A program made the position numbers and the translations under genes. Under the pieces are notes generated by a model, which was not told where the DNA came from, made no database searches, and saw nothing but the letters and a program-made list of their open reading frames with translations. Of a stretch of 64,000 bases of DNA, positions 5,504-63,701 are shown piece after piece. The DNA lies in the NCBI GenBank assembly GCA_965649055.1, contig CBFGJG010000003.1, positions 22,998-86,997 of the forward strand. The letters are read 5' to 3'. Position 1 is the stretch's first letter; every line of letters begins with the position of its first letter. This DNA is from a candidate division WOR-3 bacterium (GTDB lineage Bacteria; Hydrothermota; UBA3072; B12-G15).

Positions 5504-6346
5504 TTAAGTTCCTTTTTTAATTTTAATCTTTAACCCTATAATATGTGTAGGCTCAAAATATGAACCCGTAATTGTATAATACAATGAAATTTGGGAAAAA
5601 TCAAGTCCAATTCCGAATGAAATTTTTTTCAATTGTGAATAACCGGCCCTTATTGAGATAATGTCTCTTATTGTTATTTCAGAACCAAATGAGAAAAAAT
5701 TCTTATAATCGTTTAAAATATAAGAGATCTCAGCGAAACCATTATAACCTTCAAATTTATAAGGTAGTGATGTTGCAATTATTGTAGTCTGCGGTATTTT
5801 GTCTACTGTCTTTCCAAACCATGATATCTCAGTGCCCATAATGTCTTTTATTATCATTGAAATCCTTAATTTTTTTTCAAAGGTTAAACCGATGTCGTAT
5901 CCAAATCCTGTTCCATGAAAATCAACTATTTCCTGCTCATAGTTCTTAATATTAAATCCTATATTCACTAATTTCATCTTCGTTGCCAAAGAGAATGTCA
6001 GAACCCTTTCATTAACGCTAAAATAATCGATAGTTTCAGGGATAATGGTGTCTTCAATATCAGGGTTTAGTGGCATTTCACCTGATGTAAAATAATTTAT
6101 ACCAAAGGCAAGATATAAGCCATAGGCATTAAATCCAGTAGTAAGATTATAAAGATGAAAATTTTGAATAAGGTTTGTCCAGTCAATATAAAGGGAAGGG
6201 CTCTTGACACATATATTTGCTGGATTCCACCATATTGATGATATATCTTCATATGTGAAATAACTTGAACAGGAAATTCCTCTTGCACCTGCACCGGGAA
6301 ATAGATAATCGAAAGGAATACTGAAACTCAATAAAATCAATATCAT
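5504..6346 (-). CDS. Outer-membrane beta-barrel protein, PorV/FadL-like (candidate T9SS cargo shuttle)
   Basis: N-terminal FPGAGARGISCSSYFTYEDISSIWWNPANI resembles the conserved PorV/LptO motif (G-A-R-A-x-G-M-G-G-A...D-x-S-A-x-x-W-N-P-A-G). The remainder shows the alternating hydrophobic pattern of beta-strands. It sits immediately downstream of T9SS-CTD cargo genes with a 4-bp overlap. Confidence 0.45.
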   Translation of the reverse strand: MILILLSFSIPFDYLFPGAGARGISCSSYFTYEDISSIWWNPANICVKSPSLYIDWTNLIQNFHLYNLTTGFNAYGLYLAFGINYFTSGEMPLNPDIEDTIIPETIDYFSVNERVLTFSLATKMKLVNIGFNIKNYEQEIVDFHGTGFGYDIGLTFEKKLRISMIIKDIMGTEISWFGKTVDKIPQTTIIATSLPYKFEGYNGFAEISYILNDYKNFFSFGSEITIRDIISIRAGYSQLKKISFGIGLDFSQISLYYTITGSYFEPTHIIGLKIKIKKGT

Positions 6347-9300
6347 CTTTTCAATACCGCCATTTTTCTTTTTTCCTTTGTTTCAAAAATCCCAAGTTTA
6401 GCCCTGACAACGTAAAGGTAAACCCCATTAGGAATATAATTTCCATTATCGTCTCTTAAATGCCACTCAATTATATTTTTCCCTTCTTTCAAATCGTAGA
6501 AAACTTTTTTACAAACGATATTACCGGAAGGTTGATAAATTTCGAGAGTAGCAGAATCAGGTTTTTTTGTCAATTCAACTAAAAACTTTGTTAAATCCCT
6601 TGCGGGGTTTGGATAGTTTGAAAGAAAAGTAATTAAAAATGGTGTTTGTATATTTATGAATATATCTTTTGAAATCATATTCCCGTGAACATCGTAAGCG
6701 AAAAACTTTGCATTGTAGAAACCATCATTTAGGGAACTTTCAAGATTAAGATTCATAATGTTTAAATCCCTTGTTTCGTTCACTTCCAATATTATCTCTT
6801 TCTGGTTTATCATAAAATAAGGTTTTCTTATCCATATATCTATTCCATTATCGTCCTCAGCAGTAAGGTTTATTTTTATATTTCCATCCTTAGAATACAA
6901 CGTATCTTTTAATATTTTCACAATTGGTTTTGTATTATCACTGGTAAAACCGTAAGTGTAAAAACCTGTATCCTTCACCCAGACGCTATCCCCGGAAAGA
7001 TTAATCCATTTTAATTTCTTCCTTATATATATGGAACCATTTGATGAATCCGGAAAGATTTTTAGGAAAAATGGCTTTTGAATTGTATCATAATATATTA
7101 TTTTAAAAACCTTATTGAAATTATCAAAACTTCCAGGTTTAAAATCTTCCTGTTTTAAAGGGGGTTCGTATTCATCTTCAAATACAAAAAAATATCCATC
7201 TTTTTTAAATGTTTCTGGTAATATAGTTATTTCCCAGAATCTATCACTTATGATGTTTGTATCTAAATGATTAATTTTATAGAAATTTTTCTTCTTTATA
7301 TAATAGATTACATTATTATTTTCGTTTAGTTCGTTAATCCAGTTATAACTATCAATAAAAATCTTGAAATTTATATCCTTAAAAGTATCATTAACGAATT
7401 CTTCGATAGGGATTAAGACTTCTTCTTTTACCAAAGGTTTTATATCTGATATTATGGTATCATATATCCAATAATAATCATCATCTTTAAATTTATATAT
7501 TGACAATACTGTTGAGTCCGCTTTTTTTTCACCTGAATTTATAACATTTAATCTTAGTAATAATGTTTTGTTATCACAAAATATTTCCGGTTCTGTAAGG
7601 AATTTTAAATCCGACCTTTTTATAATATATTCTGAAAATATCCTTGACCTGTTGAAGTTTAGAGAATCAAACAATTCAATTCTAAAGTTCAGATTTAAAC
7701 CTTCTTTTATAATCGGAATTCTGCAATAATATGTTCCTGAAGAATCATTCATAAAAATCTTATTATTTAATATTCCGTCGTAACCAAATACACAGAATAT
7801 TGAATCAGGTTGAATCTTCAACTTTGCTTTTATATTTATTGTATCATTTAAACATAAAATCTCAGGATAATAGATTATACTTTCAAAAATATCCTTTTTA
7901 AATACGTTATCTTCACCTGCGATTGAGTAAAGGTTATTTTTCAATAAAGAGATAATCCTTGTATTTTCGGATAACAATTCTATATAAAATGAAGTATCTT
8001 TTGAATACCCGGTTTTATTAAAGGAATATTCATAAATATTTAAAGAATCAATCACTTTAAAATGGAATCTTCCTGTCATACTGTTTTCACATCTGATATA
8101 TAATGTGTCATTTTTATAAAGGTTAGAAAATTTAAGTGTATCTTTCGCAATCTTCAGTTTAAATAAAGGGTCGCCTATTAAATGATAACAAATGGAGTTA
8201 TATGAATCCGGAAATAGAAATTTATAATAAAAAATAATATCTCCAAGTCTTCTCAGGTCTTTTCTGAAAATTCCGTTCAGTAAAAATTTATCTGTGTGAA
8301 TATTATCAGAGAAATAAGTGAGCCCTGATGGTGCAACAGAACCTATCATTCCAACCCCGGGGAACATTACAGAATATTCACTAACGGATCTCAATTGCGG
8401 GTCATCCATTATACCATTAACACAGGAGAAGGCAAGCATAAAGGTTAGTTTCCCATAGTTTGTCAGTCTTGGTATATCATATATCCTGAAGTATCTTCCA
8501 GCCCCCAGATCTTCTTCACCACCATGACCGTGAAAATTAAATATAGTTTGACCATAAGAAAGAGCCCTTATAACTTCCTCCCATACGCTTGTCCCTTCCC
8601 TTGAATAAACACGTGTAATATCATATCCTGAAGGTATAATACTTTTTATGATCTGCTCAGAGATTACATCTGAATTTTGTAGTGCGTAATCAGCACCAAA
8701 GAATAATCTGTTTTCTTTTGGTTCATCAGAATTTGAACCATTTATTATCTTATCGATGTATCCTGCCATCTCTGTTCTTGTAATTGCGGGAATCCTGCCT
8801 ACCACGATATCTGGAAACTCGTCATTTCCACATATTTTTGAATACTCAAAATCAGAAGAATAGTATCCACCCAGAACATTTTTCATAATAACAGGGACAA
8901 GGTCAGAATTGTTTTTGTAGATATTTTTTGGGTCGTAAGTTCCCTTTCCCATAATGATAAGGTAATAGGGAGGATTATCGAGTTCAAAACAGTATCTCAA
9001 GAAGTCTTTTATCGCAAAAGGTGATTTTTCACCATAATTGAAACAGTTATAAATTTCGTCTGTTGTAAATATACTAACAGATATTGAATCATAAGATTCA
9101 TAATAATTTTTATAATTCAACGCATAATCATAAAATATCGGATGGGTTATAACAACAGCATCAGAACCATTGAAAGAGTTCATTTTATCTTCAATATTGA
9201 AATATCTTATATCTTTAGGAATCCTTTCCGTCCCTGTTAAATATACAATATAATTGGCTTTTCCATTGGTTGTATCCGAGAAAGTAACTGAATAACATTC

Positions 9301-10476
9301 TTTATCCGTTTCGATAACCGGATTAACAATTTTATATCCGTCTATTCTCATTATATTTATTCTGTTTGACTGAAAATTATTAATTGTCACCTTAAAATTA
9401 CTCTTTTCGCTCTTAAACTTCAAAATTTTCCCGTCTGATATGAATTTCCTTTTATAAAAAATTCTCAAATCTTTAAGATATATGAAAGATTGTGATTTAA
9501 TATTTATCTTTTTAATCTTCACATTGGTTGTGCATTGAATCTCTTGAAACGATTGTCCTTGAATATTAAGATTTTTTATGAATAAATCATTAACATATAA
9601 GTTTATATTCTGACTCAATAAAGAATTGTTATATAATTTTATCCTGATTATCCCGGAGTTATCATACCAATTTATTGTATCAAATAAGAATGTAAAAAAA
9701 GTATCCTGTTCGTAAAACCAGCATCCGGAACTTCTTGAAAAGATTTTTTCCTTATCGATGCATATAGAATCTTGGAAGAAATTCAAAACTTCATCGGATT
9801 CTTCTGTATTAATATGGATATAATGTTTTCCTTCACCTATCTTTAGCCAGTAATAGTCTAAAGTATCGAAATCCGATTTGTAATCTTCAGCATAAAAAAT
9901 CAAATAATCATTATTATTGAATATATTATCTCCGTCAATATCGTATACATCAACAGGGACTGTTTTATCTTTATGTTTTAATGATATCTCACTTATTGGT
10001 GGTGAGAAGTTAATATTGTTTTTTAACAACATTCTGTGTGTTAATTTATAAATACCTGAAGAATCAACAGAGATTCTTATTCCATCTTTTAATTTTATAC
10101 TAACTGAATTTCTTCTATTATTGCTGGAATTAAGTTGGTTCAGGACGATTTCATCATAAAATCTATTCTGTTTTAAGCTTAAACAACCATTTTTTTTAAA
10201 ATTAAAGTTAATTAAAATAACATCGTAATTTTTTATTTTTGTTGTATCAATCTCAATAATTAAAACCTTTCTTTTCCTGAAATCAAATGTCCCAATTATC
10301 CTTAATAAATCATTGCTTAACTTTTTTTCTCCGTTAAATAATTCATAATTAAATCCATACTCATCGGGAATAGAAATAATAGTTCTGTTTGAGATATCAT
10401 TATTTATAAATATCAGTGAGATTGATTTATCTGAATAATCTATTAATTTGAAAACCGAAAAAATTAAGAAAATCAT
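6343..10476 (-). CDS. Giant secreted caspase-fold cysteine peptidase, gingipain (C25)-like, with T9SS C-terminal sorting domain
   Basis: 1377 aa. A His-Gly catalytic-type motif (FNFHGHGGEEDLGAG) lies upstream of an Ala-x-Cys motif (TFMLAFSCVNG), the spacing and order expected for clan CD/C25 peptidases. The C-terminus (GVYLYVVRAKLGIFETKEKRKMAVLKR) matches the T9SS CTD strand pattern shared by other proteins in this window. Confidence 0.55.
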   Translation of the reverse strand: MIFLIFSVFKLIDYSDKSISLIFINNDISNRTIISIPDEYGFNYELFNGEKKLSNDLLRIIGTFDFRKRKVLIIEIDTTKIKNYDVILINFNFKKNGCLSLKQNRFYDEIVLNQLNSSNNRRNSVSIKLKDGIRISVDSSGIYKLTHRMLLKNNINFSPPISEISLKHKDKTVPVDVYDIDGDNIFNNNDYLIFYAEDYKSDFDTLDYYWLKIGEGKHYIHINTEESDEVLNFFQDSICIDKEKIFSRSSGCWFYEQDTFFTFLFDTINWYDNSGIIRIKLYNNSLLSQNINLYVNDLFIKNLNIQGQSFQEIQCTTNVKIKKINIKSQSFIYLKDLRIFYKRKFISDGKILKFKSEKSNFKVTINNFQSNRINIMRIDGYKIVNPVIETDKECYSVTFSDTTNGKANYIVYLTGTERIPKDIRYFNIEDKMNSFNGSDAVVITHPIFYDYALNYKNYYESYDSISVSIFTTDEIYNCFNYGEKSPFAIKDFLRYCFELDNPPYYLIIMGKGTYDPKNIYKNNSDLVPVIMKNVLGGYYSSDFEYSKICGNDEFPDIVVGRIPAITRTEMAGYIDKIINGSNSDEPKENRLFFGADYALQNSDVISEQIIKSIIPSGYDITRVYSREGTSVWEEVIRALSYGQTIFNFHGHGGEEDLGAGRYFRIYDIPRLTNYGKLTFMLAFSCVNGIMDDPQLRSVSEYSVMFPGVGMIGSVAPSGLTYFSDNIHTDKFLLNGIFRKDLRRLGDIIFYYKFLFPDSYNSICYHLIGDPLFKLKIAKDTLKFSNLYKNDTLYIRCENSMTGRFHFKVIDSLNIYEYSFNKTGYSKDTSFYIELLSENTRIISLLKNNLYSIAGEDNVFKKDIFESIIYYPEILCLNDTINIKAKLKIQPDSIFCVFGYDGILNNKIFMNDSSGTYYCRIPIIKEGLNLNFRIELFDSLNFNRSRIFSEYIIKRSDLKFLTEPEIFCDNKTLLLRLNVINSGEKKADSTVLSIYKFKDDDYYWIYDTIISDIKPLVKEEVLIPIEEFVNDTFKDINFKIFIDSYNWINELNENNNVIYYIKKKNFYKINHLDTNIISDRFWEITILPETFKKDGYFFVFEDEYEPPLKQEDFKPGSFDNFNKVFKIIYYDTIQKPFFLKIFPDSSNGSIYIRKKLKWINLSGDSVWVKDTGFYTYGFTSDNTKPIVKILKDTLYSKDGNIKINLTAEDDNGIDIWIRKPYFMINQKEIILEVNETRDLNIMNLNLESSLNDGFYNAKFFAYDVHGNMISKDIFINIQTPFLITFLSNYPNPARDLTKFLVELTKKPDSATLEIYQPSGNIVCKKVFYDLKEGKNIIEWHLRDDNGNYIPNGVYLYVVRAKLGIFETKEKRKMAVLKR

Positions 10477-32886: not shown

Positions 32887-33284
32887 TGTCAGAAAAATCC
32901 ATTTACAAAGGTTTTTCCTTAATTGAATTAATTGTCTCAATATCTATTATTTCAATAATTTTATTGTTTTTTTCAGGTATAACAATTTATAATCTAAAAA
33001 TGACAAGAAAATTGAATAATTTGAGGATTGCCAAGGAAATAGCCTACCAGAAATTGTCATATCTTAATTCCATTCCTTTTGATAGCGAAGAATTAAAGAA
33101 AGGAAGACATAAGCAGGAAACAATCGGTAAAAAGTTTGTTCTGAGTTATTCAGTGAAAGAGAAGGAAGAAGCAAAAGGACTGAAATGGATAGAACTTTTT
33201 GTTTATATTATACCCGAGAATGATTCTTTAAGATTCACATGTTTCGTTTCAGAAACAAAATATGAAAAAAATTACACAGAATAA
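32886..33284 (+). CDS. Prepilin-type N-terminal methylation-domain protein (pilin/pseudopilin)
   Basis: KGFSLIELIVSISIISIILLFFSG matches the prepilin peptidase cleavage/methylation motif (G|F-x-L-I-E-L). Confidence 0.65.
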   Translation: MSEKSIYKGFSLIELIVSISIISIILLFFSGITIYNLKMTRKLNNLRIAKEIAYQKLSYLNSIPFDSEELKKGRHKQETIGKKFVLSYSVKEKEEAKGLKWIELFVYIIPENDSLRFTCFVSETKYEKNYTE

Positions 33285-33365
33285 AGATTTATTTTTATTA
33301 ATATGTTGAAAATCAATAATGGATAATCGGGAACAAAAATTTTTTATAAATAATAGGAGGTAAAT

Positions 33366-33887
33366 ATGAGAAAGAAAGGTTTTTCAATAGTTGAACTTGT
33401 TGTAATAATTGCAGTTATGGGACTATTATTCGGGATAGCAGTTCCGCCAACAGTCCAGGTTTTCAGAAGGGCTGTGGACCAAAAGGTGAATGAGGTTGTA
33501 TCTGATCTTAAAGATTTAAGGGAGATAGCGATTGCAAGTAGTGCTAATATTACGATACAGAAGACAGCTGATAATAAACTCACTGTAACAATAGATTATC
33601 CTGACCCGAATACACCGGATGTTCAAAGGGAATATACATACGATAAGATTGTTTTTAAACCTGCTTATGGTTTAAGCACCCCTGTTCCAGATATAGGTGG
33701 CACTATCGATTCTGATGGATTCACATTCCCGAATAATACTATAACTTTTTTAAGATATGGTTCACCCACAAATTCAGGTGCTATATATATCACGGATGCT
33801 AAAAAAGGTAAACAAATATATGCAATAAGTATAACACTTGCAGGCAGGATAAAACTCTGGAAATGGGTGGGAGGAGGTTGGAAATGA
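33366..33887 (+). CDS. Type IV minor pilin (FimU/GspH-like)
   Basis: RBS AGGAGGT 6 nt upstream. KGFSIVELVVIIAVMGLLFGIAVP is a prepilin N-terminus. 173 aa. Confidence 0.65.
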   Translation: MRKKGFSIVELVVIIAVMGLLFGIAVPPTVQVFRRAVDQKVNEVVSDLKDLREIAIASSANITIQKTADNKLTVTIDYPDPNTPDVQREYTYDKIVFKPAYGLSTPVPDIGGTIDSDGFTFPNNTITFLRYGSPTNSGAIYITDAKKGKQIYAISITLAGRIKLWKWVGGGWK

Positions 33888-34351
33888 GGTGTTGTGAACA
33901 CTCATCAAAAAAAAGAGGATTAAAAATCAAAGGATTTACAATACGTGGATTCACAATCCTTGAGGTTGTTATTGCTATAGTCCTTTTTGGACTCCTATAT
34001 GCAGGTCTTTTCAATGCGATATTCATTGGTTTAAGGATGCAGCCAGTTATAAGAACAAGGATTTATGCACATAATGTGATGAACAGATACACTGAGATTT
34101 TAAGGACTTTACCTGTTGAACATCCTTGGTTTACAAATGATGGTGAAAATAATGACACAAATAACATTGACGAACCTGATTTTGCAAGGGTTGATACATA
34201 TAGTATTTCTGATAGTGTAAGATATGTTTACGATGTTATGTGGAATATTTTAGAGAATGTTCCTGAAAACAATATGATTTTTATAAGGGTATTTGTAAGG
34301 CGTGGAAATATTGTTGTCACAAATGATATTGTGAGATGGAGGGGAGAATGA
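33884..34351 (+). CDS. Type IV minor pilin (PilV-like)
   Basis: ATGA overlap with the preceding gene. KGFTIRGFTILEVVIAIVLFGLL is a prepilin motif with a 5-aa tandem duplication. Confidence 0.55.
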   Translation: MRCCEHSSKKRGLKIKGFTIRGFTILEVVIAIVLFGLLYAGLFNAIFIGLRMQPVIRTRIYAHNVMNRYTEILRTLPVEHPWFTNDGENNDTNNIDEPDFARVDTYSISDSVRYVYDVMWNILENVPENNMIFIRVFVRRGNIVVTNDIVRWRGE

Positions 34352-35301
34352 ATAAAAAAGGTTTGACACTTGTAGAACTTATGGTTGCCTTGGTTATATT
34401 TGGTCTTTTTATGGCTTCCATTGTTCAGGTTCTTTCCATGCAGAATAGAAAGAGTGTTCAGGTTCAATCAACATCAAATCTGCAGATGGATGCACAGGTT
34501 GCGTTCAATATATTGAAAAATGATATATATCATGCAGGTTTAGGGATAGGTGTTGAAAGATTTTCAATAATCTCCCAGGATGGTGGGACAAATGCACCAG
34601 ACCAGATCACATTACTTGGTGTGGCTCTGGGTTCTGAGGTTCCGGTTGTTCGATGGAATCCTGTTGTTCAAAGGTCTGAAGGAGGTGTTTTAGTGTGTAG
34701 GAGATGGGGTGATGTATCAAGGGATATTGCAGTGAATGACACTATCTTGATTCTTTCACCTGAAAAAAACCTTATCATTGACAACTTAAAAGTTCAACAT
34801 ATAACAGTGGATGTATCCGACCCTACGATAATGGAAGTTAGGGTTAATAATACAAGTGCATCTGCAAATGCATCTTCAATTGTTTATTGTATTCAAAATA
34901 ATAATGTTTATACAAATGGGATAACATATAGAATACAGACAATAGATGGTATTCCTGTCCTTATGCGTGGGAATGAAAGGTTCCTTGAGAATGTAGAAGA
35001 CCTTGAATTTGCTTATGGTATAGATGTTGATGATGATGGTGAGGTTGAACCAAATGAGTTTGAAAACAGTCTTGAAAATTTTCAAGCACGTATACAGGGC
35101 TTTAACTCTTCTGTCCTTTATGATAGAACTTTTGTAATAAGGGTTTCTATGCTTGTCAGGACTGAAAGCAGATTGCAGGATGTTAGGTTTGCAGAGACTA
35201 TGCAGATTGAGAACAGAACTATAAATTTTACAGATACTGAAAGAAGATTTGATAGGTTATTACTTTCAACAACAATATCACCAAGGAATATAAGGAGGTG
35301 A
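34348..35301 (+). CDS. Type IV minor pilin (PilW-like)
   Basis: GGAGG 5 nt before the ATG at 34348 (ATGA overlap). MNKKGLTLVELMVALVIFGLFMAS is a prepilin N-terminus. ~317 aa, typical of PilW. Confidence 0.55.
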   Translation: MNKKGLTLVELMVALVIFGLFMASIVQVLSMQNRKSVQVQSTSNLQMDAQVAFNILKNDIYHAGLGIGVERFSIISQDGGTNAPDQITLLGVALGSEVPVVRWNPVVQRSEGGVLVCRRWGDVSRDIAVNDTILILSPEKNLIIDNLKVQHITVDVSDPTIMEVRVNNTSASANASSIVYCIQNNNVYTNGITYRIQTIDGIPVLMRGNERFLENVEDLEFAYGIDVDDDGEVEPNEFENSLENFQARIQGFNSSVLYDRTFVIRVSMLVRTESRLQDVRFAETMQIENRTINFTDTERRFDRLLLSTTISPRNIRR

Positions 35302-35306
35302 TTAAA

Positions 35307-35765
35307 ATGAAATTTAAAAAAGGGGTTGTTCTTGTAACAACAGTCCTTGTTATGAGCCTTATCCTTGTTGCAGTCTCTGTTGCGCTTTTTTTAACATCAA
35401 AGTCAATAAGGATTACAGGTGCTGAATACAGGTCATACACATCTTTTGAAGCAGCAGAAGGTGGGATAGACAGAGGTTTACAGACAATACACAATGCATT
35501 CAGGATGGGAGAGAGGATTGATACAACATTTTCAATAAATATAACCAGATACAATGTCCAGATTCACCCGGAATTCCTTGCTACTGCACCACAGCCGGGT
35601 GGTGCTATTGAGTTTGCAGTCGGTTATCTCGGACTTGGTGTTGCAGCATCAAGGGGTGGTGCTATGAATGTTTATGCACTAACATCAACTGCATCAAGGA
35701 CAAGGGGTGAATTTACATCACTTGAAACAATAATAAGAAAAGTTATAGGAATAGCAGGGAGGTAG
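35307..35765 (+). CDS. PilX-like minor pilin (N-terminal PilX domain)
   Basis: AGGAGGTGA lies upstream. MKFKKGVVLVTTVLVMSLILVAVSVALFL resembles the PilX N-terminal domain. An alternative GTG start at 35298 overlaps the previous stop. Confidence 0.5.
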   Translation: MKFKKGVVLVTTVLVMSLILVAVSVALFLTSKSIRITGAEYRSYTSFEAAEGGIDRGLQTIHNAFRMGERIDTTFSINITRYNVQIHPEFLATAPQPGGAIEFAVGYLGLGVAASRGGAMNVYALTSTASRTRGEFTSLETIIRKVIGIAGR

Positions 35766-35767
35766 AT

Positions 35768-38700
35768 ATGAAAAAATTTATTTTAATTTTGTTACTGTTT
35801 TCTTTGTCAAGTTATACCCAGACAATGCCCTGTGATGCACCACCAACAATTATGAGGGCTGTAAAACCAAATCTTATTTTTCTCCTTGATATTTCACTCT
35901 CTATGTATGCAAGGGCATACTGGTTTGGTAGTGGTGACCCAAGAACTAATTATAATCCAAATATGCGTTATTATGGTTATTTTCACCCTGATTCAATTTA
36001 CGTTTATAGTGACCCGCAATGGGTTACAACAGGTCAAGGTGCAAATGGTGATTACCGAGTTACAACAACTAACTTTGATTTTAAGAATAAGAGAATACTT
36101 GGGAATATATTAAATTGGGCAACTATGTCAAGATGGGACATTATGAAGAAGGTTCTTGTTGGTGGTGAAGGGAATCCAACTTCAGACTATGTGAATGAAA
36201 AACTGCAAAGCAGGGGTGGTTATACTTCTGGAGATGATGGTTGGCCTACTCCTTTGATTACCCTTGTTTCTGATTCGACAGTTCAATACAGATTTGACAG
36301 GACATCACAGGGAGCAACTTCAATAGTTGTTGATTCTTTTTATAATGGAAAATGGAAAAAGAATTTTACGGCATCGCTGACAAAAATAGATGTTTCAACT
36401 CTTTCTACTGATTACAGGATAGGAATCCTTGCTAAAATAGGTGACCAAGACCTTGATAGAAAATGGGACGGTGGGAATCAGATACCGAGATTTGCAGTTA
36501 TGGTATATACTGAAGATTCTAAAGAAAATAAAATTCTAAAATTAATTAAAGATAATGGTTTCTCCGCTAATGATTCAGGGCAGAATGCTGCCGAATTAAT
36601 TACAGGTATAAAAGAACAACCGATTGGATATGCTACAAATGTTGGTGATGCCATCCTTCAGGCAATACATTATTTTGCTTCCGAAAAAGACCATTTTGGT
36701 AACTACAATAAATTCCCCGATGACCCTTATCTTAGAAAGGTAATAGGAAATATATATGACACATTATGGTGTGCACATTCTTTCGTCGTTCTCCTTGGAG
36801 ATGGACAGGCAAATAGGGATCAAATTGTTACAACAACCGATTATTCAGGAACCCACAGAATTCCTGTTGGCTATAGAGGGGACATACAGTCCTTATGTAG
36901 TTATAATAATAATCTAACAGGATATGATACGGATAGTTGGGATGATGTGAATTCAAAGAAAGACTGTTCAGACGATGGTTATTATACAGAAACAGACCAT
37001 AGGGCAGATGATTATGCATATTATGCACATGTTACAGATTTGAGGGTGGATGGTGGAACAAGAACGCCTTCTAACCTAAAAGGTGAACAAAAATTAACAT
37101 TTTATACAGTTTTTTGTTTTGGAAAAGGTGCAAATCTTTTTAAGAGTATAGCAAAATGGGGTGGATTCAATGATAGAAATTTGGACAAACTACCACAGAG
37201 AGATGAATATGATGAAAACAACGATGGGGTTCCAGATAAATATTATGAAGCAGAAACGGGTGATTCCCTTGAATCATCCATAAGGAAGATTATTTACGAG
37301 GTTATGGCAACTGTTTCTTCCGGAACTGCTACTGCAATAGTTGCAACAGGGACAAGGGGAGAAGGTGTTGGGACTTATGCAATGTATTATCCAAGAAAAT
37401 TCTATGGGCAGACTGCAATTGATTGGATAGGTATGCTTCATGGTGTCTGGGTAGATCCATTTGGAAATCTTAGAGAAGAAACAGAAGGTAATCTACAGAT
37501 GCATCTTAAGAATGATTTTGTTATAAGGATGGAATACGATACTGCTTCGGGAGAAACAAAGGTTTTAAGATACAGAGATATAAATGGTGATAACAAAAAT
37601 TTACAATTTGTAGATCAGGTAAATTATGATAATTTAAAAACAATATTCGACCTTGGAAAATATCTATTAGATGTTTCATCTAATATAAGAAATATCTGGA
37701 CTTTTATTAACAATACTGAAATAGAATTTAAAGCTGCTAACAAAAATATTATAAAGCCATATTTAGATGTTTCTACTGATGGTGAGGCTGATACATTGAT
37801 AAGATATATAAGGGGGGAAAATGACTTTGGTTTTAGAAATAGGAAGCTTCCTGATAATAGACTTTACAAGTTGGGTGATATAATGTTCTCTTCACCACTT
37901 GTTGTAGGGCCGCCTATGGAAAGGTATGACCTGCTTTATGGTGATACAAGTTATATGTCTTATTTCAGAAAATATAATTTTGATGAAAAAAGAAGGTCTG
38001 TGGTTTATGCAGGTGCAAATGATGGAATGTTACACTGTGTAAATATTGGTCTTTACTATACTGATTCAGGTGTTGTTGCAGGACATCTCGACCCTGCAGG
38101 CCATACCCCAGGTAAAGAACTCTGGGCTTATATACCATTTAACCTTTTACCACACCTAAAATGGTTAAAAGAGAAAGAATACTGTCATGTTTATTATGTT
38201 GATTTAAAACCATATCCAACAGATGCTAAGATTTTCACAGCAGATAACACACATATAAATGGATGGGGAACAGTGCTTATTTCTGGCTTCAGAATGGGTG
38301 GAACCAAATACACACTCCCAGGTGGAACAATACTTTCTTCGGGTTATGCATGTATTGATGTCACAAACCCATTAAACCCTGATGTCCTATGGGAATGGAA
38401 GATACCTGAATACACATATTCTACATCCTATCCAAATGTAATTAAAGTTCAAAATAACTGGTATATGATAGTTGGAACAGGACCAACACAATTCAATGGT
38501 TATAGTTCAATAAATGCAAAACTTTATGTTCTTAATCTTTCTGATGGTTCTGTAGTTAAGACATTTACTTTATCAGAACCCCGTTCAGCAATAGGTGATA
38601 TTATTTCTGTTGACCTTGACCTTGATTATAATGTTGATCTTGTTTATTTTGGAACTTATTATGATGCAGTTGGGAATATTGCACCGGCAGATTTTAGGGG

Positions 38701-39424
38701 AAATCTTTATAGATTAAACACAAGAGAATCAGCAGATCCAAACAATTGGACACTTACTAAATTATTTGGACCAACAAGGCCAATTACTGCTGCACCTGCT
38801 GCAACACTTGATGAACAGGGTAAACTCTGGATTTACTTTGGCACTGGTAAATATTTTTCAAGCGATGATGTTTCAGATAAAACTACAGAATATTTTTATG
38901 GTATTAAAGACACTGATACATCTTCAACTGTTTCAATTTCTGAACTTCAAAATGTTACAAATGTTAAAGTTTATGGACCTGATTCTGTTACTGGATTATC
39001 GGGTGTTAAAAATTTCAATGAATTGGAAACGTTCTTAAGAGGGAAGAAAGGATGGTACAGGGTCCTGTCATTTAGTGGTGAAAAATCATTCACAAGACCT
39101 TACGTAATTGGTGGAACACTTGTATACACGACTTTCACCCCAACCGGTGATATATGTGAGGCGACCGGCAAGGGAAGACTTTATGCATTATATTATTACA
39201 CTGGAACTGCCTATAAAAACCCTATTCTTCCCAAAAACCCTATTACAGGTGAACATGAGGTTTTAGCCGACTTAGGGCCAGGTCTTCCAGCTGAGCCAAG
39301 TTTGTATGTTGGTCCTACAGATGAAAAGATATATATACAGATTAGTGGTGCTGTAAAACAGATAGAAAATATAAACCTTGTAATGGACCCAAGGGGTGGT
39401 CTTATAATGTGGAAAAGGAGGTAA
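35768..39424 (+). CDS. pilY1: PilY1/PilC-like type IV pilus tip adhesin with N-terminal vWA (MIDAS) domain and C-terminal beta-propeller
   Basis: 1218 aa with RBS GGGAGG and a signal peptide. MIDAS motif LIFLLDISLSM. The C-terminal region (WIYFGTGKYFSSDD, LYALYYYTG) resembles the PilY1 beta-propeller domain. It follows the fimU-pilV-pilW-pilX order. Confidence 0.7.
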   Translation: MKKFILILLLFSLSSYTQTMPCDAPPTIMRAVKPNLIFLLDISLSMYARAYWFGSGDPRTNYNPNMRYYGYFHPDSIYVYSDPQWVTTGQGANGDYRVTTTNFDFKNKRILGNILNWATMSRWDIMKKVLVGGEGNPTSDYVNEKLQSRGGYTSGDDGWPTPLITLVSDSTVQYRFDRTSQGATSIVVDSFYNGKWKKNFTASLTKIDVSTLSTDYRIGILAKIGDQDLDRKWDGGNQIPRFAVMVYTEDSKENKILKLIKDNGFSANDSGQNAAELITGIKEQPIGYATNVGDAILQAIHYFASEKDHFGNYNKFPDDPYLRKVIGNIYDTLWCAHSFVVLLGDGQANRDQIVTTTDYSGTHRIPVGYRGDIQSLCSYNNNLTGYDTDSWDDVNSKKDCSDDGYYTETDHRADDYAYYAHVTDLRVDGGTRTPSNLKGEQKLTFYTVFCFGKGANLFKSIAKWGGFNDRNLDKLPQRDEYDENNDGVPDKYYEAETGDSLESSIRKIIYEVMATVSSGTATAIVATGTRGEGVGTYAMYYPRKFYGQTAIDWIGMLHGVWVDPFGNLREETEGNLQMHLKNDFVIRMEYDTASGETKVLRYRDINGDNKNLQFVDQVNYDNLKTIFDLGKYLLDVSSNIRNIWTFINNTEIEFKAANKNIIKPYLDVSTDGEADTLIRYIRGENDFGFRNRKLPDNRLYKLGDIMFSSPLVVGPPMERYDLLYGDTSYMSYFRKYNFDEKRRSVVYAGANDGMLHCVNIGLYYTDSGVVAGHLDPAGHTPGKELWAYIPFNLLPHLKWLKEKEYCHVYYVDLKPYPTDAKIFTADNTHINGWGTVLISGFRMGGTKYTLPGGTILSSGYACIDVTNPLNPDVLWEWKIPEYTYSTSYPNVIKVQNNWYMIVGTGPTQFNGYSSINAKLYVLNLSDGSVVKTFTLSEPRSAIGDIISVDLDLDYNVDLVYFGTYYDAVGNIAPADFRGNLYRLNTRESADPNNWTLTKLFGPTRPITAAPAATLDEQGKLWIYFGTGKYFSSDDVSDKTTEYFYGIKDTDTSSTVSISELQNVTNVKVYGPDSVTGLSGVKNFNELETFLRGKKGWYRVLSFSGEKSFTRPYVIGGTLVYTTFTPTGDICEATGKGRLYALYYYTGTAYKNPILPKNPITGEHEVLADLGPGLPAEPSLYVGPTDEKIYIQISGAVKQIENINLVMDPRGGLIMWKRR

Positions 39425-55301: not shown

Positions 55302-56270
55302 ATGATTGATACTGTTTTGGTAAATATTGGTTTTTTTACAATGAATTGGTACTTTCCATCTCAAGACCTAAAAATACAGAATTTTTTTTCTTCATTTGGT
55401 GGGGATTGTTATTTTATAGAAAAAAGAACAGGATTAGGTATTGGATTATCATACGAACTTCTTTTTGGCAGATTCTATTATGAATATCTAAATAAATCAT
55501 ATTCACCTTATCTTTTACGGAAGATTTTTTATAAGGAATTAAAAACTGATAATATAAATACATTTTTAATGCCTGTGTTTTATCTTAGATTCCCTCAAAC
55601 AACCCGGAGAAAATTTAATTTTACCAATTATGAATATGGAATAAGATTACTTTTGGGAAGTATGTATTCAATAGAAATTAGTAAAAATGACATAAAGGAT
55701 TTTACAAATTTTATGATTGGTACGGATGTTTCAATAAGCAAATTATTCAAATTATATAAAAAATCTCATTTTCCTGAAGACATATACCAAGCAGATAAAA
55801 AATTAAGAGAAATAGAAGAAAACTTCATATTAGTTGATAGTAGAATACCAGAAATAGAGGAGTTTAAGTTTAAAGTATACGATTTTCACAATAGAATTCG
55901 AAGAAGAATTTTAGATAGGGATGCTACAAGTTTTCTCCTTGCTGTTTGTCCATATTCAATTTTAGGTGCCGGAGCAGGTTTATACATAGCAAAGAATACT
56001 ATAACTATGGATACCACAGAGACCGAACCGGGTTGCGATAACGCATTAGTTGGAATCTTTTTATACAGTATGTATATAATCTTTGATTTGATGGTTAGGA
56101 CAGGTATGGTAATCGGATGCACTGCTGCAGGAACTGTTATTGGCACCGCAACCGGATACCTAACTGGACAGAACTATTATAACTATAAACTAACCGAAAC
56201 AGAAAAGAAAGAACTTGTCATTATATTAAACAAATATTACAGATTAATAAACGAATCAATCAATAAATAA
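55302..56270 (+). CDS. Hypothetical membrane protein with C-terminal glycine-zipper helices
   Basis: C-terminal GAGAGLYIAKN and GCTAAGTVIGTATGYLTGQ Gly-zipper-like segments. 322 aa. Confidence 0.35.
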   Translation: MIDTVLVNIGFFTMNWYFPSQDLKIQNFFSSFGGDCYFIEKRTGLGIGLSYELLFGRFYYEYLNKSYSPYLLRKIFYKELKTDNINTFLMPVFYLRFPQTTRRKFNFTNYEYGIRLLLGSMYSIEISKNDIKDFTNFMIGTDVSISKLFKLYKKSHFPEDIYQADKKLREIEENFILVDSRIPEIEEFKFKVYDFHNRIRRRILDRDATSFLLAVCPYSILGAGAGLYIAKNTITMDTTETEPGCDNALVGIFLYSMYIIFDLMVRTGMVIGCTAAGTVIGTATGYLTGQNYYNYKLTETEKKELVIILNKYYRLINESINK

Positions 56271-56300: not shown

Positions 56301-57392
56301 TTACTTAATACAAATAATTTTAATAATTTTACTTTTGGTTTTTATAAAATAGATTCCTTCCTTTTTGGGTTCCCAGGTTGTAGGAGTTTTCAAAAATTTG
56401 ACTAATTTACCGGTTATATCAAAAATCAGTATATATGAATTGGGTTCCTCTTCTAATTTAAAGGTCTTTCCTATTATTGTTGATGGAAGGTTTCTTTCTT
56501 CATATATACCTGTTCCGGTATATCTGACTTCAACTGTATCCATTGTTGGATGACCGTAAATTGAGTCACCAAAACAATAATGGAAATTCCAGTCTGTTGA
56601 TTCATTCTTCAGGTATCTATTGAAAAAAGCAGTCATATGCCTGCGTGAAATTCTTTGTTGTTCTTCCCGTGTTATTGTAGCCGTCCCACCATTTTCCCAG
56701 AAATAAGAATAGTCCATAAAAAATCCATGGTTAGCACCATTTATAACCGCAAAAGTTCCAGGTTCTGGTGCATTTGTCCAATATGCGCTTCTGACATCAT
56801 TCCAGGGCGCAATATTATCAACTGATCCAGCTATTATCATTTTAGGCACATCGAGATGTTCAGAATGAGTTTGAGGGGTTGTCTGCGGGCTCGCAAGTGA
56901 AACAACAGCTTTCAATGTATCTGGTAATTTAAAAGTATCAGCAGCAAGCAAAGCAAGACCACCACCCATACTATGCCCAGCAAACCCCCAGTTGAATTTA
57001 TCGAGTTTATGATAAAATAAATCGTTCACGCTATCATTCAGACTGGAGATAAACAAAGCTGCATCAACCATTGACCTCGCCCTCGTATAATGTTCAGGCG
57101 TCGGAAAAGGGTTTGAAATTGTGGGTAAAACAACCACATATCCCCAGGAAGCGAGATGTTTTGCATAACTATAATATCTATCAATTCCCATCTGGAAACC
57201 ATGACCAAAAACAATTATAGGACAGGGAACTGCATTTGTATCCACTCCGGTCCCACTTGAAGGATAATACACCCTTGAATTAGACATAGTTTCGTAAATC
57301 CCGGGGATATTTAAAACACGATAAGATACATTTTGGAACGGACCAGTTGTATCATAATCTGGAAAAAGATCTATGATTATAAACAACAGCAT
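56301..57392 (-). CDS. Cutinase/PETase-like alpha/beta-hydrolase (dienelactone-hydrolase fold polyesterase) with T9SS C-terminal sorting domain
   Basis: RBS GGAGG 5 nt upstream. YYPSSG...PCPIIVFGHGF, the nucleophile elbow GHSMGGG, the acid motif GSVDNIAPW and the His motif INGANHGF parallel the conserved blocks of type II PET hydrolases and actinobacterial cutinases. The C-terminal GIYFIKTKSKIIKIICIK is CTD-like. Confidence 0.6.
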   Translation of the reverse strand: MLLFIIIDLFPDYDTTGPFQNVSYRVLNIPGIYETMSNSRVYYPSSGTGVDTNAVPCPIIVFGHGFQMGIDRYYSYAKHLASWGYVVVLPTISNPFPTPEHYTRARSMVDAALFISSLNDSVNDLFYHKLDKFNWGFAGHSMGGGLALLAADTFKLPDTLKAVVSLASPQTTPQTHSEHLDVPKMIIAGSVDNIAPWNDVRSAYWTNAPEPGTFAVINGANHGFFMDYSYFWENGGTATITREEQQRISRRHMTAFFNRYLKNESTDWNFHYCFGDSIYGHPTMDTVEVRYTGTGIYEERNLPSTIIGKTFKLEEEPNSYILIFDITGKLVKFLKTPTTWEPKKEGIYFIKTKSKIIKIICIK

Positions 57393-57490
57393 ATTTACCT
57401 CCGTTTATTCAATTATAAAATGATTGAATTTTTTGTCAATAATTTCTTGATTTTTTTTTAAAATTTTTTATTTTAAATAAAAAGGAGAAA

Positions 57491-59158: not shown

Positions 59159-60421
59159 TCACTTAAATGAAAATATTATTGGAAAGATAAACGAAATAAT
59201 AAAAGCATAAACCGAATAGACAGGCAAATATTTTGCTATCCAGAATACAATTGTTTCCAATCCTGATTTTTTTCTGAAAAAACGAATATAATTTATAACT
59301 ATTCCCAGAAGATTTATAAACATTAAAATATTAATGAGAAGAGCAGTTGAACGATTTGGTGTGAGCCCGAATGAATATAATCTGAATATAATTGCAGAGA
59401 GTGCAATCACATCTATTATAAGTGAAATTGATATCAATGAAAAAATCAAATAATCAATAATGGATTTATCAGTTCTTTTTCTTTCGGATATCGTAAATAT
59501 AACTAATCCGAGGACAATTAAAAGCATAAAGTCAAAAGTGATTAGAGTCTCTCTTTCTTTATAAGGGCTTTTGCGAAGAATTAGCATTGTTAATAAATAA
59601 ATAACCAATGTGATTAAAACCATTGGTGCAAATATTCTTGCTATAATCGGGGCAAAGTTTTTTGAAAATTCTTTCTTTTCTGTAAGATATGTTCCAATTA
59701 GTGGGATTGAAGGAAAAAGAAATACAATGATATAATCCATATAAAAGTTTTCTATCTTTAAATCTATAACATTGAATAAAAAGATTGTAAATCCGGTTAA
59801 TATTGTTAAACAAATAAGTAAGATTCCAGAATATATCAGAAGTTCACCATTGTATCTTATGTATGCAATCCTCTTATGTAAATCTTTATAATCACCAGCG
59901 AATGATAGGCCAAGAAAAAACCATAAAAAAACTGGAAGATGAAGATATGTCAGATAAATAGTCTGTGAATCTTTTAATTCAGGCAAAGAGTTTATATATA
60001 TAAATGAAAAAATAAAAGCAATAGAAATAATCAGGATTTTTCTTTTATCAAGGGTGTTTTTTACAATGTAAAATATTGAAAGCAAAAATAAAATAATAAT
60101 AGGCATATTTTTTATATAAAATATTTCTCTATATATATTAAGATATTTTAAAAAATTAGGAATTTCCAGAAATAATCCACCTAAAAAAGATAGCATCAGA
60201 ATTATTGATAAATCACTAATTTTCTTAAAACTCTTTTCCGTTTTTTCTCTATAAAGGGAATAATTCAGTCTTGCATTCCAAACTTTTAAAACAATTGAAT
60301 CTTGGTTTTCAGAAAATACCTTACCGAAGGCATCTATGAATTCCTTTTCATTTGTTCTATAAAGTCTTTCAAGTTCCTCAGGATTATTTATATTCTCTTT
60401 TATTAATCTTTCAAAATCCAA
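59159..60421 (-). CDS. Polytopic membrane protein with N-terminal cytoplasmic domain, unknown function
   Basis: 420 aa. An N-terminal ~70-aa soluble region (LERLYRTNEKEFIDAFGKVF) is followed by at least 10 transmembrane segments. Confidence 0.45.
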   Translation of the reverse strand: MDFERLIKENINNPEELERLYRTNEKEFIDAFGKVFSENQDSIVLKVWNARLNYSLYREKTEKSFKKISDLSIILMLSFLGGLFLEIPNFLKYLNIYREIFYIKNMPIIILFLLSIFYIVKNTLDKRKILIISIAFIFSFIYINSLPELKDSQTIYLTYLHLPVFLWFFLGLSFAGDYKDLHKRIAYIRYNGELLIYSGILLICLTILTGFTIFLFNVIDLKIENFYMDYIIVFLFPSIPLIGTYLTEKKEFSKNFAPIIARIFAPMVLITLVIYLLTMLILRKSPYKERETLITFDFMLLIVLGLVIFTISERKRTDKSIIDYLIFSLISISLIIDVIALSAIIFRLYSFGLTPNRSTALLINILMFINLLGIVINYIRFFRKKSGLETIVFWIAKYLPVYSVYAFIISFIFPIIFSFK

Positions 60422-61501
60422 TTATCTTCCTTCCTCAATTTTAAATGTTATTTTTACTTTTCTGAAGAATGTCTCTTTACTATTATCCTGAAGATAGAAT
60501 GTTAAAGTTGAATCATCCTCTGATTTAATCCTCCATACCCTGAAATATAAATCATCTTTAAAAAAATCCTGATCATTCAAAGGATAAAGAGTTCCCAGAT
60601 ATTCAAAATCCTTCTTCCTGTAAACATCAACAAAGAAAAATCCTTTTCTATACAATTTCCTGAATTTATTTTCGTAATTTCCTATCTCCCATTCTTTAAG
60701 CCACAATTTTTCATATGCTATGAAGATATAATTATCAGAAATACTAATTCCAGCCGCTGGTGTCTTTTTTATTTTATATGTTTTGTTTTTACCTTTCCCT
60801 TTTATCTCAACCTTTGGTATTGTCCATTCTTTATGTTTGATACCGAAATCTTTTATTTTTCTGCCTGTAAATACATCGTAAGCCTTCAATCTGTCATAGA
60901 AATATTCATAAACGATAAGTATACTTCCTTTAACATCCCATTCAAATTCAGGGTATGGGATTGTAAATCTATCATATTTTAGTTTTTCTTTGAATTTTAT
61001 ATCTGGATATTCAATCATTTCACCAAATGAAGAAATCTTTTTCCCGTTTTTTATGTTAAAAACTGAAAAATAATCCTTTATACTTGAAAAATCCTCGATT
61101 ATAATCAATTCATCATTTATAAATTTAAAATATCCATCTATACCTATATTGGCTATATCCTTTAATCCTTCATTTATTCTTTTTAATATTCCGGAAGTGA
61201 TAATATAAACAAATCCATCTTTTTCTTTCACTGAATATATATATTTATCCCTTGAAAAGTAAAGAGTATCTAATTTTTCAGAAAAAATGTTGAATCTTAC
61301 TAATGGTCTTCCAATCCCATAGATATAAAGATTATTGTTATACACCTCAACTATATTACCAACATAGTAATCTGCTTCAGCTTCTACTATATCTTTTGAT
61401 ATTATCTTGATTTTTTCATACTTTTCCCTGTTACAGGTGATAAATGATATAAAAATCAAAAAATAGAATATTCTCATATTAAAATGATAATAATAAAACA
61501 A
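60422..61501 (-). CDS. Lipoprotein, unknown function
   Basis: Lipobox ISFITCN. 359 aa with beta-rich repeats. Abuts the downstream gene with no gap. Confidence 0.45.
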   Translation of the reverse strand: MFYYYHFNMRIFYFLIFISFITCNREKYEKIKIISKDIVEAEADYYVGNIVEVYNNNLYIYGIGRPLVRFNIFSEKLDTLYFSRDKYIYSVKEKDGFVYIITSGILKRINEGLKDIANIGIDGYFKFINDELIIIEDFSSIKDYFSVFNIKNGKKISSFGEMIEYPDIKFKEKLKYDRFTIPYPEFEWDVKGSILIVYEYFYDRLKAYDVFTGRKIKDFGIKHKEWTIPKVEIKGKGKNKTYKIKKTPAAGISISDNYIFIAYEKLWLKEWEIGNYENKFRKLYRKGFFFVDVYRKKDFEYLGTLYPLNDQDFFKDDLYFRVWRIKSEDDSTLTFYLQDNSKETFFRKVKITFKIEEGR

Positions 61502-63209: not shown

Positions 63210-63701
63210 TCACCTCACTATTACAATCTTTCCTCTTTCTTCCTTCCAGTCTGATTTCAAGATATAGAAGTATACACCCGATATACCTGGATTGAATTCT
63301 AAACTGTATCTCTCTGAATTTATCTTCCCTTTCATCATCTTTCTAACTACCCTGCCAAATATATCATATATCACAAGTTCTACATTTCCTTCCTTTGGTA
63401 TCCCAACCTTGAATATCACTCTTCCCTTACCAAAATTACTTGTTAATCTAAACTCAAATACATCAGGTATATCTTTAATTCCTGTTATCGTGAATGTCTT
63501 CGTTTCTGATAGCCTGTCATTACCTGCTGAATCTATACCAATCACATAATATTCTATATTCATCGTCCCTTCTGTCTGTAAAGGTATTACACCTCTATAT
63601 GTGTTCCCTGATACATATTCCATTGTATCCTCATACCATTCCTTTGTATAATTCACCTGATACCTCAATATACCATAACTTATACCATTTATATCTGTCA
63701 T
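63210..63701 (-). CDS. Secreted protein with T9SS C-terminal sorting domain (N-terminus uncertain)
   Basis: C-terminal GVYFYILKSDWKEERGKIVIVR is CTD-like. The first ATG is at 63701, but the reading frame stays open and hydrophobic upstream to 63863 without an ATG/GTG/TTG, so the true start and signal peptide are unresolved. Confidence 0.45.
   Translation of the reverse strand: MTDINGISYGILRYQVNYTKEWYEDTMEYVSGNTYRGVIPLQTEGTMNIEYYVIGIDSAGNDRLSETKTFTITGIKDIPDVFEFRLTSNFGKGRVIFKVGIPKEGNVELVIYDIFGRVVRKMMKGKINSERYSLEFNPGISGVYFYILKSDWKEERGKIVIVR

Follow-up and report, generated by a model that had tools for sequence, protein, structure and literature searches.

The stretch of DNA analysed here, referred to as the window, spans 64 kb of contig CBFGJG010000003.1 from a candidate division WOR-3 bacterium. 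At 56301..57392, on its minus strand, the window's list of open reading frames (ORFs) places a complete and intact ORF with an ATG start, encoding 363 amino acids (aa) followed by a stop. Its product, which we call the esterase, joins an alpha/beta-hydrolase domain, with the fold of the enzymes that hydrolyse poly(ethylene terephthalate) (PET), to a C-terminal domain that resembles the sorting domains of type IX secretion systems (T9SS). An earlier note, made from the sequence alone, had described the gene as encoding a PETase/cutinase-like polyesterase with a T9SS domain, and the blocks that it quoted are present in the translation, which contains VYYPSSGTGVDTNAVPCPIIVFGHGF, AGHSMGGG, SVDNIAPW and INGANHGF, with MLLFIIIDLFPDYD as the N-terminus. 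The features of the gene are listed below, where L015 is a sister-strain contig from an independent Logan assembly, used as the reference for the ratio of nonsynonymous to synonymous substitution rates (dN/dS), pLDDT is the per-residue confidence of the predicted structure, and the family alignment, A1, consists of 80 homologous sequences.

57412..57439, minus strand: sigma-70-type promoter, TTGACA-16 nt-TATAAT (12/12 consensus positions; TTGACA conserved in L015; function predicted from the consensus only)
57398..57402, minus strand: Shine-Dalgarno sequence GGAGG, 5 nt 5' of the ATG (read from the sequence; conserved in L015)
56301..57392, minus strand: complete ORF of a PETase-fold alpha/beta-hydrolase with a C-terminal sorting domain (ORF list, Pfam PETase match, dN/dS against L015)
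57363..57392, minus strand: N-terminal 10 residues, MLLFIIIDLF, a short, hydrophobic and uncharged leader that may serve as a minimal Sec signal (comparison with the sister strain, the family and a PorV-like protein)
56523..57350, minus strand: catalytic alpha/beta-hydrolase domain, residues about 15-290
56970..56972, minus strand: nucleophile codon, Ser141 of the GHSMGGG block, corresponding to Ser160 of IsPETase (alignments; invariant in the 80 homologues)
56817..56819, minus strand: codon of the triad acid, Asp192 of the VDNIAPW block, corresponding to Asp206 of IsPETase (alignments; invariant in the 80 homologues)
56727..56729, minus strand: codon of the triad base, His222 of the NGANHGF block, corresponding to His237 of IsPETase (alignments; invariant in the 80 homologues)
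56670..56726, minus strand: residues 223-241, GFFMDYSYFWENGGTATIT, a family-specific conserved stretch that follows the catalytic His, with a predicted role (gap pattern in hhalign, family consensus, pLDDT 96-98)
56481..56522, minus strand: low-confidence linker, residues 291-304 (pLDDT <50 for residues 295-304)
56304..56480, minus strand: divergent T9SS type-A-like C-terminal beta domain of 7 strands, residues 305-363, ending in ...EGIYFIKTKSKIIKIICIK (profile search and structural model)

The start codon is fixed by an in-frame TAA stop located 5 codons upstream of the ATG, together with the GGAGG sequence and the consensus promoter, and the same three elements make MLLFIIIDLF the true N-terminus of the protein. 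The promoter lies inside a 98-bp gap, beyond which a divergent gene encodes a major facilitator superfamily (MFS) transporter. An upstream extension, a frameshift or an assembly error as the origin of the short N-terminus could be excluded by the in-frame stop, by this intergenic region with its promoter, and by the equal length of the protein in the independent assembly. A consensus sigma-70 promoter combined with a strong Shine-Dalgarno sequence is not what is usually found in Bacteroidota. The GC content of the gene is 37%, compared to a window mean of about 31%, with other conserved genes of the window at 35-38%.

When the esterase is compared with its L015 orthologue, dN/dS is 0.063 for the whole gene, 0.03 for the catalytic core and 0.22 for the C-terminal domain, values that are rough since dS is close to 1. 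This low overall ratio (0.06) indicates that the gene is functional and, together with the integrity of every invariant residue, rules out a pseudogene.

Catalytic domain and its distance from PET hydrolases

In Pfam, the esterase matches the PETase family (PF12740) with 59.6 bits against a cut-off of 28 (E = 4e-16), in an alignment that covers only profile positions 21-213 of 263 and leaves the last third of the catalytic domain with no match to the profile. Weaker and partial matches are given by the families Chlorophyllase, DLH and PAF-AH. The top matches of a phmmer search against the PDB were all PET hydrolases or cutinases (best E = 3e-12, with about 25% identity over residues 16-223), and the best PDB match of the family profile was PET30 (7pzj; E = 4e-30), spanning both the catalytic and the Por domains. 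The profile-profile comparison of A1 with IsPETase by hhalign, for which a sequence identical to that of PDB 6QGC was used, reached a probability of 99.5% and placed Ser141, Asp192 and His222 on Ser160, Asp206 and His237. These three residues, as well as H64, Y73 and H101, are invariant in A1, and sequence alignment identifies the three motifs around the triad, i.e., the G-x-S-M-G-G elbow, the D-x-I-A-P loop and the G-x-x-H loop. The AlphaFold2 model built from A1 (pLDDT 92.6; predicted TM-score, pTM, 0.81) has the compact alpha/beta fold of cutinases and PETases, and its top 50 Foldseek matches in the PDB consist of PETases and cutinases only, with target-normalised TM-scores of 0.77-0.88, those to PETases being 0.80-0.88.

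Profile search, profile-profile comparison and predicted fold agree, then, on the PETase/cutinase-like catalytic core that the earlier note had proposed, with Ser, Asp and His in the triad columns. A best match to an unrelated alpha/beta-hydrolase subfamily, by which the earlier note would have been refuted, was not obtained, the best matches being all PETases and cutinases. Judging from these comparisons, the esterase is a member of the broad PF12740 family, but belongs to a separate and uncharacterised subfamily of it.

A more ambitious reading is that the esterase is an efficient and potentially thermostable PET hydrolase, cleaving aromatic polyester as IsPETase, LCC and PET27/PET30 do, which we regard as unlikely. 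It would account for the PET hydrolases being the top matches in both sequence and structure, it has a precedent in the T9SS-tagged PET30, with measurable PET activity (PMC8767016), and a hot origin would fit the names of the relatives' metagenome-assembled genomes (MAGs), which point to the Tengchong springs, and the optimum of about 71 C estimated from amino acid composition (see below). The residues of IsPETase contacting a PET analogue are Tyr87, Trp159, Met161, Trp185, Ile208 and His237 (numbering converted from PMC8767016). Phe66, His140, Met142 and Ile194 of the esterase are the equivalents of Tyr87, Trp159, Met161 and Ile208 and, along with His222, are conserved or cutinase-like; Phe-Met plus GHSMGGG is a cutinase-type arrangement. 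However, the substrate-binding motif for PET is Tyr/Phe-Met-Trp/Tyr (Tyr87, Met161 and Trp185), and a candidate enzyme whose motif reads Phe-Met-Ala showed no activity on PET (PMC8767016). The esterase has the first two residues, Phe66 and Met142, whereas the third aromatic is missing, because none of three independent alignments puts an aromatic at the "wobbling" position (Trp185/Tyr178), where they give Gln170, Pro173 or Pro169. Trp, Tyr and Phe are absent across residues 165-182, and also from the family-conserved loop S-L-A-S-P-Q-T-T-P-Q-T-H-S-E-H.

The same conclusion is reached from the disulfides and from the surroundings of the catalytic His. The earlier note had asked for the disulfide positions to be compared with those of PET hydrolases, and no PETase/cutinase disulfide was found in the esterase: Cys203 aligns with Gly189 and Cys239 with Phe224, Cys289 has no counterpart cysteine, and there is no Cys273-Cys289 pair. 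Its only cysteines, at 57, 273 and 361, form no conserved pair; the one at 273, the only one nearby, is shifted by one position, lacks a partner and varies among the homologues. The segment GFFMDYSYFWENGGTATIT is highly conserved in the family and confidently modelled, and approximately 14 of its residues have no counterpart in IsPETase. This segment (residues 223-241) probably reshapes the substrate cleft, and as a conserved insert beside the catalytic His it may narrow it. In addition, an invariant GHGF is found in the esterase family where PETases have PGY/F. The profile scores differ as well: IsPETase scores 433 bits against PF12740 compared to the 59.6 bits and partial coverage of the esterase, which reaches 33 bits against a cut-off of 520 with the NCBIfam equivalog for bis(2-hydroxyethyl) terephthalate (BHET) hydrolases, NF051441.

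With the aromatic clamp missing and the cleft divergent, efficient PET hydrolysis is disfavoured. The divergent polyester or PET hydrolase of the earlier note is hence retained as a resemblance of fold and not as a supported function. The esterase is not likely to be a PET degrader; activity on PET may occur as a weak, promiscuous side reaction, and efficient hydrolysis is not predicted from the sequence. A lipid or pigment esterase of the type of chlorophyllase or platelet-activating factor acetylhydrolase (PAF-AH), acting on small lipidic esters (chlorophyll-like compounds or phospholipids), would be in keeping with the Pfam Chlorophyllase match (28.7 bits, cut-off 26), shared by 80/80 family members, with the PAF-AH_p_II match of 47/80, with GHGF in place of the PETase PGY/F and with an H-x-x-F-x-D motif after the catalytic His, presumably PAF-AH-like, but it is very unlikely, since these matches span only residues 57-148 and 57-88, PETase-type structures outscore them in every comparison, and the catalytic domain, with about 275 residues compared to chains of 297 (chlorophyllase) and 369 (PAF-AH), has no extra cap elements.

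Putative export signals and T9SS-like genes

Most family members carry a C-terminal domain of about 86-105 residues, in which Por_Secre_tail is recognised in 33/80 and FlgD_ig in 19/80. A hidden Markov model (HMM) built from the C-terminal domains of the homologues detects that of the esterase at E = 1e-7 and recovers the C-termini of other window proteins, and the family profile also aligned to the Por domain of PET30 (second domain i-Evalue 9e-4). The esterase domain is shorter, with 74-77 aa compared to about 86 (approximately 12 residues less). In the model, DSSP assigns it 7 strands within residues 306-361, and it is ordered (pLDDT 77-92), conforming to the 7-strand immunoglobulin (Ig)-like architecture of sorting domains described in PMC11285876. 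Its tail, GIYFIKT...KIIKIICIK, parallels four other sorting-domain-like tails in the window (G-I-Y ... K-I-I-K-I-x-x-K). The T9SS-related genes of the window are the following.

63210-63701, minus strand: ORF of 163 aa with a sorting domain that passes TIGR04183 (28.7 vs 23 bits)
11789-13048, minus strand: protein with a T9SS-like tail, weakly similar
10473-11792, minus strand: protein with a T9SS-like tail (TIGR04183 20.4 bits)
6343..10476, minus strand: PorU-like C25 peptidase of 1377 aa, a putative sortase (Peptidase_C25 203 bits; C-terminal FlgD_ig 30.1 vs cut-off 27)
5504..6346, minus strand: PorV/PorQ-family outer-membrane protein of 280 aa, directly downstream of the PorU-like gene (NF033709; UniRef homologue)

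The claim that four other window proteins have a similar C-terminus is essentially right, as it applies to 63210-63701, 10473-11792 and 6343-10476 and, weakly, to 11789-13048. The first of these ORFs has no leader (MTDINGISYG...) and could represent the last part of a longer gene, interrupted or cut near the end of the window. The region 5504-13048 (minus strand) is operon-like, with two proteins carrying T9SS-like tails followed by the PorU-like and then the PorV-like protein, and 4-bp overlaps between neighbours. The UniRef name of the homologue of the latter is "PorV/PorQ family protein, candidate division WOR-3". According to their sequences, the PorU-like and PorV-like proteins are divergent versions of their namesakes in a WOR-3 genome.

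At the other end of the protein, a canonical signal peptide is present in the majority of the family and ends in A-Q before a conserved P-D-[YF], e.g., MRKFIFVVLIVLFLFIKPIFSQ followed by YPDYD. This A-Q is near-universal among the homologues P0003-P0095 of A1, and it occurs in proteins from WOR-3, Zixibacteria and Fermentibacteria. It resembles the "Q-rule" of Bacteroidetes, by which the mature protein begins with a Gln that is cyclised to pyroglutamate. A neighbour-joining tree groups the window protein with P0121, and places this pair as the sister of P0002 and P0008. Homologues of the sister clade have signal peptides of 21-22 aa ending in AQ ahead of the PDYD motif, and the clade formed by these four proteins lost the positively charged n-region and, in the sorting domain, the PNP motif. 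From the window protein and P0121 the AQ site disappeared too, which left 10 residues before PDYD.

The short, atypical leader that the earlier note took for a signal peptide is real, as the leader of the sister strain also has the short form (MLLVLIINLF) and the leader of the PorV-like protein is equally short and uncharged (MILILLSFSIPFDY). The latter is conserved in four other WOR-3 assemblies with 57-84% identity, and the 4 bp that its gene shares with the one upstream fix the start. Short uncharged leaders are found at the start of 7/58 window ORFs, compared to 4.4% of internal Met positions (p = 0.014). Considering both the PorV-like leader and this enrichment, the short leader would be a habit of the lineage and not the result of gene damage, and these sequences may be unusually short Sec leaders. 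The ORFs concerned start at 2827, 6346, 10476 and 11792 (minus strand), 14686 and 30408 (plus strand) and 57392 (minus strand); their leaders consist of M plus 6-9 hydrophobic residues with no K/R n-region (MILILLSFS, MILILFALQ, MIILFIAQ), and 4/7 belong to T9SS-related proteins. Classical MKK... signal peptides are present in the window as well.

Host, relatives and gene neighbourhood

The host belongs to candidate division WOR-3 (Caldifarciminota in NCBI) and not to Bacteroidota, which corrects any placement of this DNA in the latter; NCBI does not list Caldifarciminota inside the Fibrobacterota-Chlorobiota-Bacteroidota (FCB) group. The searches recovered 526 homologues of the esterase, with E down to 1e-170. 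A variant of 363 aa, 89% identical to the esterase, is found in an independent Logan assembly, the next relatives, at 55-71% identity, are almost all from candidate division WOR-3 MAGs, and those at 40-60% identity are from Fermentibacteria/Aegiribacteria, Coatesbacteria, Zixibacteria and Latescibacteria. When 1.84 billion cluster representatives were searched exhaustively, the tight family comprised about a dozen clusters, a few fragments included; the number of clusters was 21 for E <= 1e-30 and rose to 711 for E <= 1e-10, and relatives with 30-37% identity were among the matches. Deposited relatives bear the names "alpha/beta hydrolase", "dienelactone hydrolase" or "T9SS type A sorting domain-containing protein".

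The host is probably a thermophilic, hot-spring bacterium. Jinze and Gongxiaoshe are hot springs in Tengchong (PMC3541193, PMC10579274), to which the prefixes JZ- and GXS- of the relatives' MAGs appear to refer. The fraction of the residues Ile, Val, Tyr, Trp, Arg, Glu and Leu (IVYWREL) in the window proteome is 0.433, corresponding to an optimum of about 71 C, a crude estimate that is biased by AT-richness. A thermophilic origin is made plausible by both the spring-like names and this estimate. Searches of a library of papers found no publication on WOR-3 and T9SS or type IX secretion, nor on Caldifarciminota, and a single, unrelated co-mention of WOR-3 and PET hydrolase.

The esterase gene stands alone, its neighbours encoding the MFS transporter, unknown proteins and a tetratricopeptide repeat (TPR) membrane protein. 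None of the flanking genes travels with it across 14 related loci, and general synteny was observed with one WOR-3 MAG only (MnmA and the TPR membrane protein). In the absence of conserved neighbours, the context gives no clue to the substrate of the esterase. The flanking genes at 55302-56270 (plus strand), 59159-60421 (minus strand) and 60422-61501 (minus strand) have no Pfam match at E <= 0.01, and two of them resemble multi-pass membrane proteins by sequence. Elsewhere in the window, a cluster of small proteins with prepilin-type N-termini (32886-39424, plus strand; e.g., MRKKGFSIVELVV and KGLTLVELMVAL) is followed by a secreted protein of 1218 aa with a classical signal peptide, in an arrangement that resembles a type IV pilus or pseudopilin locus.

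Proposed mechanism and comparison with known systems

The explanation that we favour, and consider probable, is that the protein is an exported serine carboxylesterase with a cutinase/PETase fold, sorted by a T9SS-like PorU/PorV apparatus and acting on an extracellular hydrophobic or polymeric ester. It starts from observed facts: the fold, the conservation of the triad, the homology of the C-terminal domain, the purifying selection and the PorU/PorV-like genes encoded in the same window. Export, the processing of the sorting domain and the class of substrate are what we infer from them. The export signals would be still working, because the C-terminal domain is under purifying selection and ordered, its tail matches those of other proteins of the window, and PorU/PorV-like genes are present.

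Several observations weigh against this explanation. The leader has only about 7 hydrophobic residues, one of its positions being occupied by Asp8, and neither a positive n-region nor an AQ/AxA cleavage site. Neither curated cut-off is reached by the C-terminal domain (14.2 vs 27 bits for PF18962 and 16.1 vs 23 bits for TIGR04183), which is also devoid of the PNP motif of the sister-clade sorting domains, so that the T9SS domain claimed earlier stands as a homologue of type-A sorting domains, but not as a member recognised by either model. The PorU-like protein, with 242.6 bits for the T9SS_sortase model NF033707, is under the cut-off of 420, and the PorV-like protein, with 63 bits for NF033709, is under that of 90. 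Neither a Sov/SprA translocon nor PorKLMN motor genes were seen within the 64-kb window. Finally, the substrate is a guess, because no member of the subfamily has been characterised.

Part of these observations could also be explained if the export signals had decayed, leaving an intracellular esterase (in the cytoplasm or periplasm) with an N-terminal stub and a C-terminal domain as relics. The loss of the n-region in the window protein, P0121, P0002 and P0008, and of the AQ site in the first two, fits this scenario, as does a C-terminal domain that is short, devoid of PNP, sub-threshold in both Pfam and TIGRFAM, and evolving about 7x faster than the core. Nevertheless, a dN/dS of 0.22 still corresponds to purifying selection, AlphaFold2 predicts an ordered domain of 7 strands, and its terminal signature is common to the other sorting-domain proteins of the window. 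Regarding the N-terminus, the sister strain keeps the short leader, and the PorV-like protein, which is necessarily exported, has an equally short and conserved one. We therefore find the decay of the export signals decidedly improbable.

According to the favoured explanation, the esterase would be a two-domain protein of about 40 kDa with the triad Ser141-Asp192-His222, in which the main chain of Phe66 (GHGF) and Met142 (GHSMGGG) would make up the oxyanion hole. Where PET hydrolases have the Trp185 clamp, the cleft is probably lined here by a conserved loop, rich in aromatics, that follows the catalytic His (FFMDYSYFWENGG). The minimal hydrophobic leader would first direct the protein through the Sec pathway. 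Upon passage, a T9SS-type sorting apparatus, with the PorV-like shuttle and the PorU-like C25 sortase encoded 46 kb away, would recognise the C-terminal Ig-like domain, and the enzyme would then be released or bound to the cell surface. There, it would cleave the ester bonds of an extracellular compound that is probably hydrophobic or a polymer; lipids, aliphatic polyesters and acylated polymers would be examples.

A bolder and unlikely extension would make the esterase the first studied representative of a disulfide-free polyesterase subfamily of anaerobic, thermophilic candidate phyla, lacking the Trp clamp and binding the polymer through its FFMDYSYFW loop, active at 70 C or above (>=70 C), and exported outside Bacteroidota by a T9SS-like PorU/PorV route with uncharged Sec leaders of 8-10 residues. 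If expressed and active, the enzyme would represent a naturally thermophile-derived and cysteine-poor scaffold for the polyesterase family, which, being free of disulfides, should be easy to produce in the cytoplasm, and its activity would show how substrate is bound without the canonical Trp clamp. Hydrolases tagged with sorting domains beside PorU/PorV-like genes in WOR-3 also bear on T9SS-type surface sorting beyond Bacteroidota, and are one more sign that this sorting reaches into WOR-3.

T9SS-tagged esterases of the PETase type have been described before. As the earlier note had stated, T9SS-exported enzymes resembling PET hydrolases are known in Bacteroidota, namely the PET-active esterases PET27 from Aequorivita sp. 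and PET30 from Kaistella jeonii (PDB 7PZJ) (PMC8767016). The esterase adds an uncultured WOR-3 member, for which "alpha/beta hydrolase with T9SS-like tail" is the routine annotation. Its identity to PET30 is only about 22%, and whereas PET30 and PET27 keep both the aromatic third residue of the motif (Tyr/Trp) and the C-terminal disulfide, the esterase has neither. It further differs from them in the insert of about 14 residues after the catalytic His, in having GHGF and not PGF, in a sub-threshold sorting domain without PNP, in its uncharged leader of 10 residues and in its phylum, WOR-3. Compared to IsPETase, GlacPETase, LCC and TfCut2, identity is 20-25%, and the esterase has neither an equivalent of Trp185 nor the disulfides. 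Chlorophyllase (PF07224) and PAF-acetylhydrolase (PF03403) give partial, lower-scoring matches, and the esterase has no cap or lid domain.

With regard to the T9SS type-A sorting domains (TIGR04183/PF18962), the esterase domain departs from them in its sub-threshold scores, the absence of PNP, its length, shorter by about 12 residues, and a host phylum for which no T9SS literature was found. It shares with them, however, the position at the extreme C-terminus, the 7-strand Ig-like architecture, the G-[IV]-Y and basic C-terminal motifs, the homology to sorting domains of sister proteins that pass the thresholds, and the presence of PorU/PorV-like genes nearby.

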